From the NCBI RefSeq assembly GCF_003334815.1, contig NZ_QOWO01000002.1: a stretch of 64,000 nucleotides of DNA. One strand, 5' to 3'. This stretch comes from Escherichia coli. GTDB taxonomy: Bacteria; Pseudomonadota; Gammaproteobacteria; Enterobacterales; Enterobacteriaceae. The stretch's first letter is position 1. Every line of letters begins with the position of its first letter. The notes under the pieces are model-generated. The model saw only the letters and a list, made by a program, of their open reading frames with translations, made no database searches and had not been told where the DNA came from. This document shows, in pieces, positions 48,733 to 52,722 of this stretch. Both the position numbers and the translations under genes were made by a program.

Positions 48733-51700
48733 TTGAGCCAGGAATACACTGAAGACAAAGAAGTCACATTGACAAAGTTAAGTAGCGGCCGCCGCCTTCT
48801 GGAGGCGTTGCTGATCCTTATTGTCCTGTTTGCCGTCTGGTTGATGGCTGCCTTACTAAGCTTTAACCCTTCGGACCCCAGCTGGTCGCAAACGGCCTGG
48901 CATGAACCTATCCATAATTTAGGTGGGATGCCCGGTGCGTGGTTGGCAGATACGCTGTTCTTTATTTTTGGCGTGATGGCTTACACCATTCCCGTCATTA
49001 TTGTCGGCGGTTGTTGGTTTGCCTGGCGTCATCAGTCCAGCGACGAATACATTGATTATTTTGCCGTTTCGCTACGCATCATTGGCGTTTTGGCGCTCAT
49101 CCTTACCTCCTGTGGTCTGGCGGCAATCAACGCTGACGATATCTGGTATTTTGCCTCCGGTGGCGTCATTGGCAGCTTACTAAGCACTACGCTACAACCA
49201 CTGCTACACAGTAGCGGGGGAACTATTGCGCTGCTCTGCGTTTGGGCAGCGGGCCTGACGTTGTTCACCGGTTGGTCATGGGTGACCATTGCTGAAAAAC
49301 TCGGCGGCTGGATTTTAAACATTCTCACCTTCGCCAGTAATCGTACCCGTCGCGATGATACCTGGGTCGATGAAGATGAGTATGAAGACGACGAAGAGTA
49401 TGAAGATGAAAATCACGGCAAACAGCATGAATCACGCCGTGCCCGTATTCTTCGCGGCGCGCTAGCGCGTCGTAAACGGTTGGCGGAAAAATTCATTAAT
49501 CCGATGGGGCGGCAAACAGACGCTGCGTTGTTCTCCGGTAAGCGGATGGATGATGACGAAGAGATTACCTACACTGCACGCGGTGTGGCTGCCGACCCGG
49601 ACGACGTCCTATTTTCGGGCAATCGTGCAACGCAGCCAGAATATGACGAATACGATCCATTATTAAACGGTGCGCCAATTACCGAACCTGTCGCTGTAGC
49701 AGCTGCTGCTACCACGGCGACACAAAGCTGGGCTGCGCCGGTTGAACCTGTGACTCAGACGCCGCCTGTTGCCTCTGTTGATGTTCCACCTGCGCAACCT
49801 ACAGTAGCCTGGCAGCCTGTACCGGGTCCACAAACGGGAGAGCCGGTTATTGCTCCTGCACCGGAAGGTTACCCACAGCAGTCACAATATGCGCAGCCTG
49901 CAGTGCAATATAATGAGCCGCTGCAACAACCAGTACAGCCGCAGCAGCCGTATTATGCACCTGCAGCTGAACAACCTGCGCAACAGCCGTATTATGCCCC
50001 TGCGCCAGAACAACCGGTGGCAGGTAACGCCTGGCAAGCCGAAGAGCAGCAATCCACTTTTGCTCCACAGTCTACATACCAGACTGAGCAAACTTATCAG
50101 CAGCCAGCCGCTCAGGAGCCGTTGTACCAACAGCCGCAACCCGTTGAACAGCAGCCTGTTGTGGAGCCTGAACCCGTTGTAGAAGAGACAAAACCCGCGC
50201 GTCCGCCGCTTTACTACTTTGAAGAAGTTGAAGAGAAGCGAGCCCGTGAACGTGAACAACTTGCGGCCTGGTATCAACCGATTCCAGAACCGGTTAAAGA
50301 ACCAGAACCGATCAAATCTTCGCTGAAAGCACCTTCTGTTGCAGCAGTACCTCCAGTAGAAGCCGCTGCCGCTGTTTCCCCGCTGGCATCTGGCGTGAAA
50401 AAAGCGACACTGGCGACGGGGGCTGCCGCAACCGTTGCCGCGCCAGTCTTCAGTCTGGCAAATAGCGGTGGACCGCGTCCTCAGGTCAAAGAGGGGATTG
50501 GTCCGCAGTTGCCACGACCGAAACGTATCCGCGTGCCAACTCGTCGTGAACTGGCGTCTTACGGTATTAAGCTGCCCTCACAGCGTGCGGCGGAAGAAAA
50601 AGCCCGTGAAGCCCAGCGCAATCAGTACGATTCTGGCGATCAGTACAACGATGATGAAATCGATGCGATGCAGCAGGATGAACTGGCACGTCAGTTCGCC
50701 CAGACACAGCAGCAACGCTATGGCGAACAGTATCAACATGATGTGCCCGTAAACGCAGAAGATGCAGATGCTGCGGCAGAGGCTGAACTGGCTCGTCAGT
50801 TTGCGCAAACTCAACAACAACGTTATTCCGGCGAACAACCGGCTGGGGCGAATCCGTTCTCGCTGGATGATTTTGAATTTTCGCCAATGAAAGCGTTGCT
50901 GGATGATGGTCCACACGAACCGTTGTTTACGCCAATTGTTGAACCTGTACAGCAGCCGCAACAACCGGTTGCACCGCAGCAGCAATATCAGCAGCCGCAA
51001 CAACCAGTTCCGCCGCAGCCGCAGTATCAGCAGCCACAACAGCCGGTTGCGCCGCAGCCACAATATCAGCAGCCGCAACAACCGGTTGCGCCACAGCAGC
51101 AATATCAGCAGCCGCAACAACCGGTTGCGCCGCAGCAGCAGTATCAGCAGCCACAACAGCCAGTTGCGCCACAACCGCAGGATACCCTGCTTCATCCGCT
51201 GTTGATGCGTAATGGCGACAGCCGTCCGTTGCATAAACCGACGACGCCGCTGCCTTCTCTGGATTTGCTGACACCGCCGCCGAGCGAAGTGGAGCCGGTA
51301 GATACCTTTGCGCTTGAACAAATGGCTCGCCTGGTGGAAGCGCGTCTGGCTGATTTCCGTATTAAAGCCGATGTCGTCAATTACTCTCCGGGGCCGGTTA
51401 TCACTCGCTTTGAATTGAACCTGGCACCGGGCGTAAAAGCGGCGCGCATTTCTAACTTGTCACGGGACCTTGCCCGTTCACTTTCGACGGTGGCGGTGCG
51501 TGTCGTTGAAGTTATTCCTGGCAAACCCTATGTAGGTCTGGAGTTACCGAATAAAAAACGACAAACCGTTTATCTGCGCGAAGTTTTGGATAACGCCAAA
51601 TTCCGCGATAATCCGTCGCCATTAACCGTGGTGCTGGGTAAAGATATCGCCGGTGAGCCGGTGGTTGCCGATCTGGCGAAAATGCCGCACTTGTTGGTTG

Positions 51701-52722
51701 CGGGGACTACCGGTTCCGGTAAATCTGTCGGTGTGAACGCGATGATCCTGAGCATGCTTTATAAAGCACAGCCAGAAGATGTGCGTTTCATCATGATCGA
51801 CCCGAAAATGCTGGAGCTTTCGGTTTATGAAGGCATTCCGCATCTGTTAACGGAAGTCGTTACTGATATGAAAGATGCCGCCAACGCGCTGCGCTGGTGT
51901 GTTAACGAGATGGAGCGTCGGTATAAACTGATGTCTGCGCTGGGTGTGCGTAATCTGGCGGGTTATAACGAAAAAATTGCTGAAGCCGATCGCATGATGC
52001 GTCCGATTCCAGACCCGTACTGGAAGCCGGGTGACAGTATGGATGCCCAGCATCCGGTGCTGAAAAAAGAACCATACATTGTGGTGTTGGTTGACGAATT
52101 TGCCGACCTGATGATGACGGTAGGTAAAAAAGTGGAAGAGCTGATAGCACGTCTGGCGCAAAAAGCCCGTGCCGCGGGTATCCACCTCGTACTGGCAACT
52201 CAGCGTCCATCGGTTGATGTTATTACTGGTCTGATTAAAGCGAATATTCCGACCCGTATCGCCTTTACCGTATCCAGTAAGATTGACTCACGTACCATTC
52301 TTGATCAGGCTGGCGCGGAATCACTGCTGGGTATGGGGGATATGCTCTACTCTGGGCCGAACTCCACGTTGCCGGTACGTGTCCATGGTGCTTTTGTTCG
52401 CGATCAGGAAGTTCATGCCGTGGTGCAGGACTGGAAAGCGCGTGGTCGCCCACAGTATGTTGATGGCATCACCTCCGACAGCGAAAGCGAAGGTGGTGCG
52501 GGTGGTTTCGATGGCGCTGAAGAACTGGATCCGTTGTTCGATCAGGCGGTGCAGTTTGTCACTGAAAAACGCAAAGCGTCAATTTCTGGCGTACAGCGTC
52601 AGTTCCGCATTGGTTATAACCGTGCAGCGCGTATTATCGAACAGATGGAAGCGCAGGGGATTGTCAGCGAACAGGGGCACAACGGTAATCGTGAAGTGCT
52701 GGCCCCACCGCCGTTTGACTAA
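48733..52722 (+). CDS. ftsK: DNA translocase FtsK
   Basis: 1329-aa ORF (TTG start); N-terminal membrane domain, Pro/Gln-rich linker, C-terminal motor with Walker A GTTGSGKS and gamma domain. Confidence 0.95.
50951..51181 (+). repeat. In-frame 39-bp tandem repeats (~6 copies) in the ftsK linker
   Basis: Repeated CAGCAGCCGCAACAACCGGTTGCGCCGCAGC(A/C)GCA(A/G)TAT units with point variants, encoding [10 protein letters not shown](Q/P)QY. Confidence 0.85.

Follow-up and report, generated by a model that had tools for sequence, protein, structure and literature searches.

The 39-bp tandem repeat in the FtsK linker of Escherichia coli is the strain-typing locus CVN001

Described repeats and the identity of the ftsK array

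The repeat considered here has its closest described counterpart in CVN001 (Lindstedt et al. 2007), which belongs to the generic E. coli MLVA scheme (GECM-7 and GECM-10), lies in ftsK and has a 39-bp unit. The original Lindstedt primers, together with a sizing rule that gives the allele number as (product - 250)/39, are found in PMC8143711, and MLVA primers for 'CNV001 (ftsK)' are given in PMC11773471. PCR sizing has yielded CVN001 alleles 4, 5, 6, 7 and 8 at 1, 40, 40, 13 and 5% (PMC5217547), and published MLVA data describe ST131 as nearly monomorphic at the locus, with rare variants. Salmonella carries a 39-bp ftsK VNTR known as STTR7/SENTR2 (PMC2430564, PMC8627665). The same E. coli scheme includes CVN004, a repeat in tolA whose contraction (6.9e-5) is RecA-dependent and whose repeat number modulates stress tolerance (PMC3477136). 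Phase-variable simple-sequence contingency loci form a further class, in which tract length changes by misalignment.

We analyzed a 64,000-nucleotide stretch of an E. coli contig (NZ_QOWO01000002.1; hereafter the window), in which a sequence-only reading had pointed to about six in-frame 39-bp repeats at 50951-51181 of ftsK and had proposed their number as a simple strain marker. We find six units at 50950..51183 on the plus strand, within one or two bases of those coordinates, and we identify this array (array B) as CVN001, a marker in use since 2007; the proposed use is thus already routine. The CVN001 forward primer ECMLV4-F has a single exact match in the window at 50835..50855 on the plus strand, and the reverse primer ECMLV4-R a single exact match at 51251..51272 on the minus strand. 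The Lindstedt primers map to positions from 50837 (forward) and 51262-51281 (reverse), giving a 445-bp amplicon and, by the published rule, (445 - 250)/39 = allele 5.0. Since six physical units give allele 5.0, the MLVA allele number equals the number of units minus one, and after this one-unit offset the PCR allele frequencies agree with those in the 59 complete genomes that we sampled (see below). CVN001 and array B therefore share primers, unit length, gene and allele spectrum, and differ only in numbering, with the six units of K-12 corresponding to allele 5. As CVN001 is among the more informative markers of the generic E. coli scheme, and its orthologue serves the same purpose in Salmonella, the practical value of the repeat has already been realized.

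The Salmonella enterica repeat resembles array B in its orthologous position, its identical 13-residue consensus and its 39-bp unit: Salmonella FtsK fragments (P0016 and P0074) carry their units at the same position, between the same conserved flanks (the '...EPLFTP...' side). It differs in belonging to another genus and in the roughly nine units reported for S. Enteritidis; we compared the units themselves as peptides. Among the FtsK sequences that we compared, regular units occur only in Escherichia, Salmonella and one relative (P0012); at the array position, the segment in sequences labeled Klebsiella, Raoultella, Cronobacter and Pantoea is rich in Pro, Gln and Tyr but irregular. The tolA repeat is similar to array B in being in frame, in lying within the extended connector of an envelope or division protein, in being polymorphic between strains and in belonging to the same MLVA scheme; unlike array B, it has a 15-bp unit and encodes part of an alpha-helical periplasmic domain. 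Contingency loci share with array B the change of tract length by misalignment, but array B alters the length of a protein and does not switch expression on and off. Since its unit is 13 codons, gain or loss of a unit never shifts the reading frame. We rejected a phase-variation switch, judged by frameshifting or a promoter effect, on these grounds: with a 13-codon unit, all intact alleles remain in frame.

Position of the array in ftsK and the reading frames that overlap it

The ftsK coding sequence occupies 48733..52722 on the plus strand, stop codon included, as a 1329-residue ORF listed with a TTG start. In K-12 and other complete genomes, regions annotated 'ftsK: DNA translocase FtsK' are 100% identical to the tested stretches of this ORF, and lolA is the next gene after ftsK in related records. 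The TTG at 48733 is equivalent in position to the first codon of a RefSeq ftsK CDS (L012), a single CDS translated from its own first codon. A Pfam scan of the N-terminal 816 residues places the FtsK_4TM membrane domain (PF13491, E = 3.4e-42) at residues 20-191 (48790..49305, plus strand). The C-terminal motor, with its alpha, beta and gamma subdomains, spans residues 818-1329 (51184..52719, plus strand), which correspond to chain residues 1-512 of PDB 2IUS, and homologous fragments carry precomputed PF17854 and PF01580 matches. Array B encodes residues 740-817, so that the crystallized motor construct begins one residue past its end. The array thus lies, as the sequence-only reading had placed it, in the Pro/Gln-rich linker between the membrane and motor domains. 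We found no solved structure covering FtsK residues 192-797. Prior work describes the linker as long, unstructured and Pro/Gln-rich, with a length that depends on the species and parts that contact divisome proteins (PMC5357621, PMC2673442); portions of it are reviewed as interacting with FtsQ, FtsL, FtsI and FtsZ (PMC5357621).

The units of array B lie in phase 0 of the ftsK ORF, the first starting at residue 740. Five of the six encode QQPQQPV(A/P)PQ(Q/P)QY and the sixth another 13-residue sequence, and in every translated unit 10 or 11 of the 13 residues are proline or glutamine. Tandem Repeats Finder reports 50950-51170 as 5.7 copies of a 39-bp period (88% matches, score 344), and in-frame cutting extends this to six full units. 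Identity at a lag of 39 bases is 0.872, far above what the composition of the segment produces: in 10,000 shuffles of the same 78 codons, the best in-frame lag averaged 0.578 (sd 0.020) and reached 0.712 at most. The Pro/Gln-rich composition of the segment therefore does not account for the periodicity, which is real. Tandem Repeats Finder also describes 50950-51170 as 1.9 copies of a 117-bp period (94% matches, score 400), and the unit pairs 1/4, 2/5 and 3/6 share 37, 36 and 33 of 39 bases. We rejected a 117-bp higher-order unit, which is weakly supported here and is not seen as such in other alleles.

The sequence-only reading had also held that the repeats generate long spurious antisense ORFs, naming 50578..51321 on the minus strand. 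This 247-residue ORF is indeed in the ORF list and is spurious, but the array supplies only 31% of it. The ORF is codon-aligned with ftsK, and its frame is free of stops for 293 codons, between a sense TCA at 50578 and another at 51460, with the array contributing 78. The frame is open mainly because ftsK has no sense TTA, CTA or TCA codons in this interval, and less because of the repeat; absence of the same codons leaves the codon-aligned antisense frame stop-free from 49885 to 50577 as well as from 50581 to 51459. The repeat does play a part, as five of the six frames through array B are free of stop codons. A unit of this kind adds to long antisense frames, and lets indel errors in assemblies pass without meeting a stop inside the array.

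We give almost no credence to the idea that 50578..51321 encodes a real overlapping protein. Its length of 247 codons, which stays open at any repeat number since this frame of the unit is free of stops, is what speaks for such a protein, and it is offset by the absence of sense TTA, CTA and TCA codons between 50578 and 51460, from which an open codon-aligned frame follows. The predicted product is moreover a low-complexity, Leu/Arg-rich sequence, and its exact sequence is absent from roughly 15 billion predicted proteins. The polymorphism pattern led us to reject a real antisense gene: of 13 natural substitutions that fall in the ORF but not in the array, 12 leave the FtsK sequence unchanged and only 2 leave the antisense product unchanged. 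Exact look-ups of two other ORFs overlapping ftsK, one antisense and one on the plus strand, likewise returned nothing from the roughly 15 billion predicted proteins. Further ORFs of 100-131 residues lie over the linker, at 49882..50277, 50567..50914 and 50927..51274 on the minus strand and at 50903..51205 and 49850..50182 on the plus strand; all of them are probably artefacts of the codon composition of the linker.

Copy number among genomes and the behavior of assemblies at the array

With a query that included the array, BLAST alignments were interrupted within the repeat in roughly one third of genomes, which made array lengths unreadable, and we therefore built queries from joined unique flanks only. 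Two 300-bp unique flanks were joined, and the span of each hit gave the array length. This query matched all 5,426 complete genomes, from which we sampled 60 rows at even ranking steps; one was partial, leaving 59 genomes that form a systematic rather than random sample of RefSeq complete genomes, themselves a biased sample of E. coli. The commonest arrays have seven units (273 bp; 28 of 59, 47%) and six units (234 bp; 21 of 59, 36%), followed by eight units (312 bp; 3 of 59) and nine units (351 bp; 2 of 59). The other lengths were 249 bp in three genomes, 264 bp in one and 171 bp in one, so that the array ranges from 171 to 351 bp across the sample, with a Simpson's D of 0.65. Repeat number does vary between strains, as had been predicted from the window: among complete E. 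coli genomes it spans two to nine units. The shortest array in a complete genome is a two-unit (78-bp) allele in strain MS1657 (NZ_CP135957.1; L007/L011), whose FtsK has 1303 residues. This allele may be real, given that short CVN001 alleles are reported by PCR, including an allele 2 from an ST131 isolate in the MLVA literature.

When one example of each length class was parsed unit by unit, the alleles differed by whole 13-residue units and by occasional partial units (QQPQY, QQPVVPQPQY). One partial unit is accounted for exactly by a 24-bp deletion between 9-bp direct repeats, GCAGCCGCA, within a unit. A nine-unit allele contains an exact duplication of two units (units I-O-I-O), and its longest exact internal repeat is 92 bp. 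In all seven alleles taken from ftsK genes that are intact (non-pseudogene), the length is a multiple of three and the frame is kept.

These comparisons qualify the description of the repeats as slippage-prone. Unit number does differ between strains, yet the 48 full units of eight alleles comprise 30 distinct DNA sequences, and array length tracks the flanking haplotype, since all 14 of the sampled genomes with flanks identical to those of the window have six units (234 bp). The array is prone to slippage in a relative sense only; it appears to behave as a lineage marker and not as a hypermutable tract.

A second VNTR, array A, lies further upstream in the linker at 49942..50019 on the plus strand, where the window has two 39-bp units (Tandem Repeats Finder, period 39, 1.9 copies). 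It too is in frame, and encodes QQPYYAPA(A/P)EQP(A/V). K-12 has two units, and other aligned E. coli FtsK proteins have three or four. A flank-only search of 60 systematically sampled genomes gave one unit in 1, two in 18, three in 21 and four in 19, with a Simpson's D of 0.69, which makes array A at least as diverse as CVN001. The MLVA literature examined gives it no locus name. In an alignment of five full-length FtsK proteins (1303-1381 residues), all indels fall in array A or array B, and differences in ftsK length among the records examined thus come entirely from the two arrays.

The sequence-only reading had further warned of assembly collapse, and public assemblies do break, apparently collapse or shift frame at array B. 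A protein search with the array region returned mainly partial FtsK fragments from very short contigs. One of these (P0022, with 99 member sequences) takes up an entire 468-bp contig and begins within unit 2. Another (P0076, 90 members) takes up a 981-bp contig equivalent to window positions 50004-50984, which has the final 16 bp of array A at one end and the first 35 bp of array B at the other; five independent assemblies contain this contig, identical in length and in the position of the gene. Three further fragments (P0057, P0017 and P0019) have one-unit arrays on draft contigs of 582-1030 bp; in the P0057 contig, unit 1 runs straight into the last unit. These one-unit arrays look like collapse, though a real one-unit allele is possible. 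The array is broken by short k-mers and is resolved by long k-mers or long reads.

Genomes labeled complete are also affected. In CRE10 (NZ_CP034404.1; L008), ftsK is annotated as a frameshifted pseudogene, with an array region of 455 bp, not a multiple of three, in which part of the left flank appears a second time, out of frame (locus positions ~1500-2130). The probable cause is an error of long-read assembly, ftsK being an essential gene. Two frameshifted fragments (P0041 and P0021) likewise come from 'complete' genomes, and P0041 goes out of frame and back into it inside the array. When ftsK is called at this position as fragmented, as frameshifted or with a single unit, the call usually reflects a problem of assembly and not biology.

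Flawed records such as CRE10, P0041, P0021 and the one-unit draft contigs could suggest that copy-number variation is mostly an artefact of repeat collapse or expansion, a reading that we consider highly improbable. Independent PCR fragment sizing and the genome sample agree in their allele spectrum, and on this evidence we rejected the stronger proposition that all of the variation is artefactual. The alleles also differ in the sequence of their internal units as well as in number while staying in frame, and their length follows the flanking haplotype as described above.

A separate observation from the protein search concerns a 126-residue fragment (P0087) labeled 'hypothetical protein, partial [Xanthomonas citri pv. 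citri]'. It is 96% identical to E. coli FtsK, and its 31 member sequences lie on contigs of 381 bp; these Xanthomonas assemblies seem to be contaminated with E. coli DNA.

Constraint on the repeat peptide and the role of the linker segment

The 48 full units that comprise 30 DNA sequences encode no more than 12 peptides. At codon positions 1, 2 and 3, site diversity is 0.042, 0.063 and 0.237, four to six times higher at the third position, and codon differences from the consensus number 62 synonymous against 27 nonsynonymous. The synonymous bias and the third-position variation indicate that the peptide motif has been kept under purifying selection as the DNA drifted, and the many DNA unit types imply that point mutations have accumulated between rearrangements. 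Such constraint would also fit a specific function, as opposed to a passive spacer.

Our preferred explanation, which we hold with high confidence, is that the array is the ftsK minisatellite CVN001, encoding the last 78 linker residues before the alpha subdomain of the motor. The encoded segment is probably disordered and tolerant of length change, as part of the tether that links the septum-anchored N-terminal domain to the hexameric motor. Between the 4TM domain and the motor construct lie ~626 residues, of which one unit makes up about 2%, and from this we infer that copy number is probably near-neutral. Unit number would change through misaligned pairing of units, by RecA-dependent unequal recombination or by replication slippage; we propose this for ftsK by analogy, since it has been demonstrated experimentally for the tolA repeat. 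In the K-12 array, units are ~77-95% identical in pairwise comparison and no exact internal repeat is longer than 32 bp, and slippage or recombination may accordingly be infrequent. Biologically the array adds little to current understanding, in which the FtsK linker is already seen as a flexible tether tolerant of length change.

An alternative is that copy number is adaptive, with the number of units in array B, together with array A, tuning the length of the FtsK tether or its divisome contacts under lineage-specific selection, as has been shown for the tolA repeat. We think this unlikely. The conservation of the peptide motif despite DNA divergence is consistent with such selection, as is the presence of the same consensus motif in Salmonella, but related genera have an irregular Pro/Gln-rich segment at this position, with no regular units. 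The allele distribution is narrow and centered on six to seven units, a pattern that shared ancestry also yields, and alleles of two to nine units occur in otherwise normal isolates. The effect of tolA repeat number on stress tolerance (PMC3477136) and the interactions of linker parts with FtsQ, FtsL, FtsI and FtsZ (PMC5357621) offer precedents for a phenotype; against them stands the sole published allele swap at the ftsK repeat, in which an 84-bp repeat indel was exchanged between two S. Enteritidis strains and egg-white survival, the one assay used, was unchanged (PMC6137255). Somewhat less probable again is a version in which the Tyr-punctuated 13-residue module is itself the selected functional unit, for example as a multivalent 'sticker-spacer' or divisome-binding element, with its copy number and array A tuning the clustering or reach of the motor at the septum.

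Elsewhere in the linker, a 14-residue motif occurs twice on the plus strand, at 50680-50721 (residues 650-663) and 50785-50826 (residues 685-698), 35 residues apart. In contrast to most of the linker, both copies can be recognized in fragments from Salmonella and Klebsiella michiganensis (for example, 'ELARQFAASQQQRY'), and this conservation suggests that the motif may be a conserved functional element.
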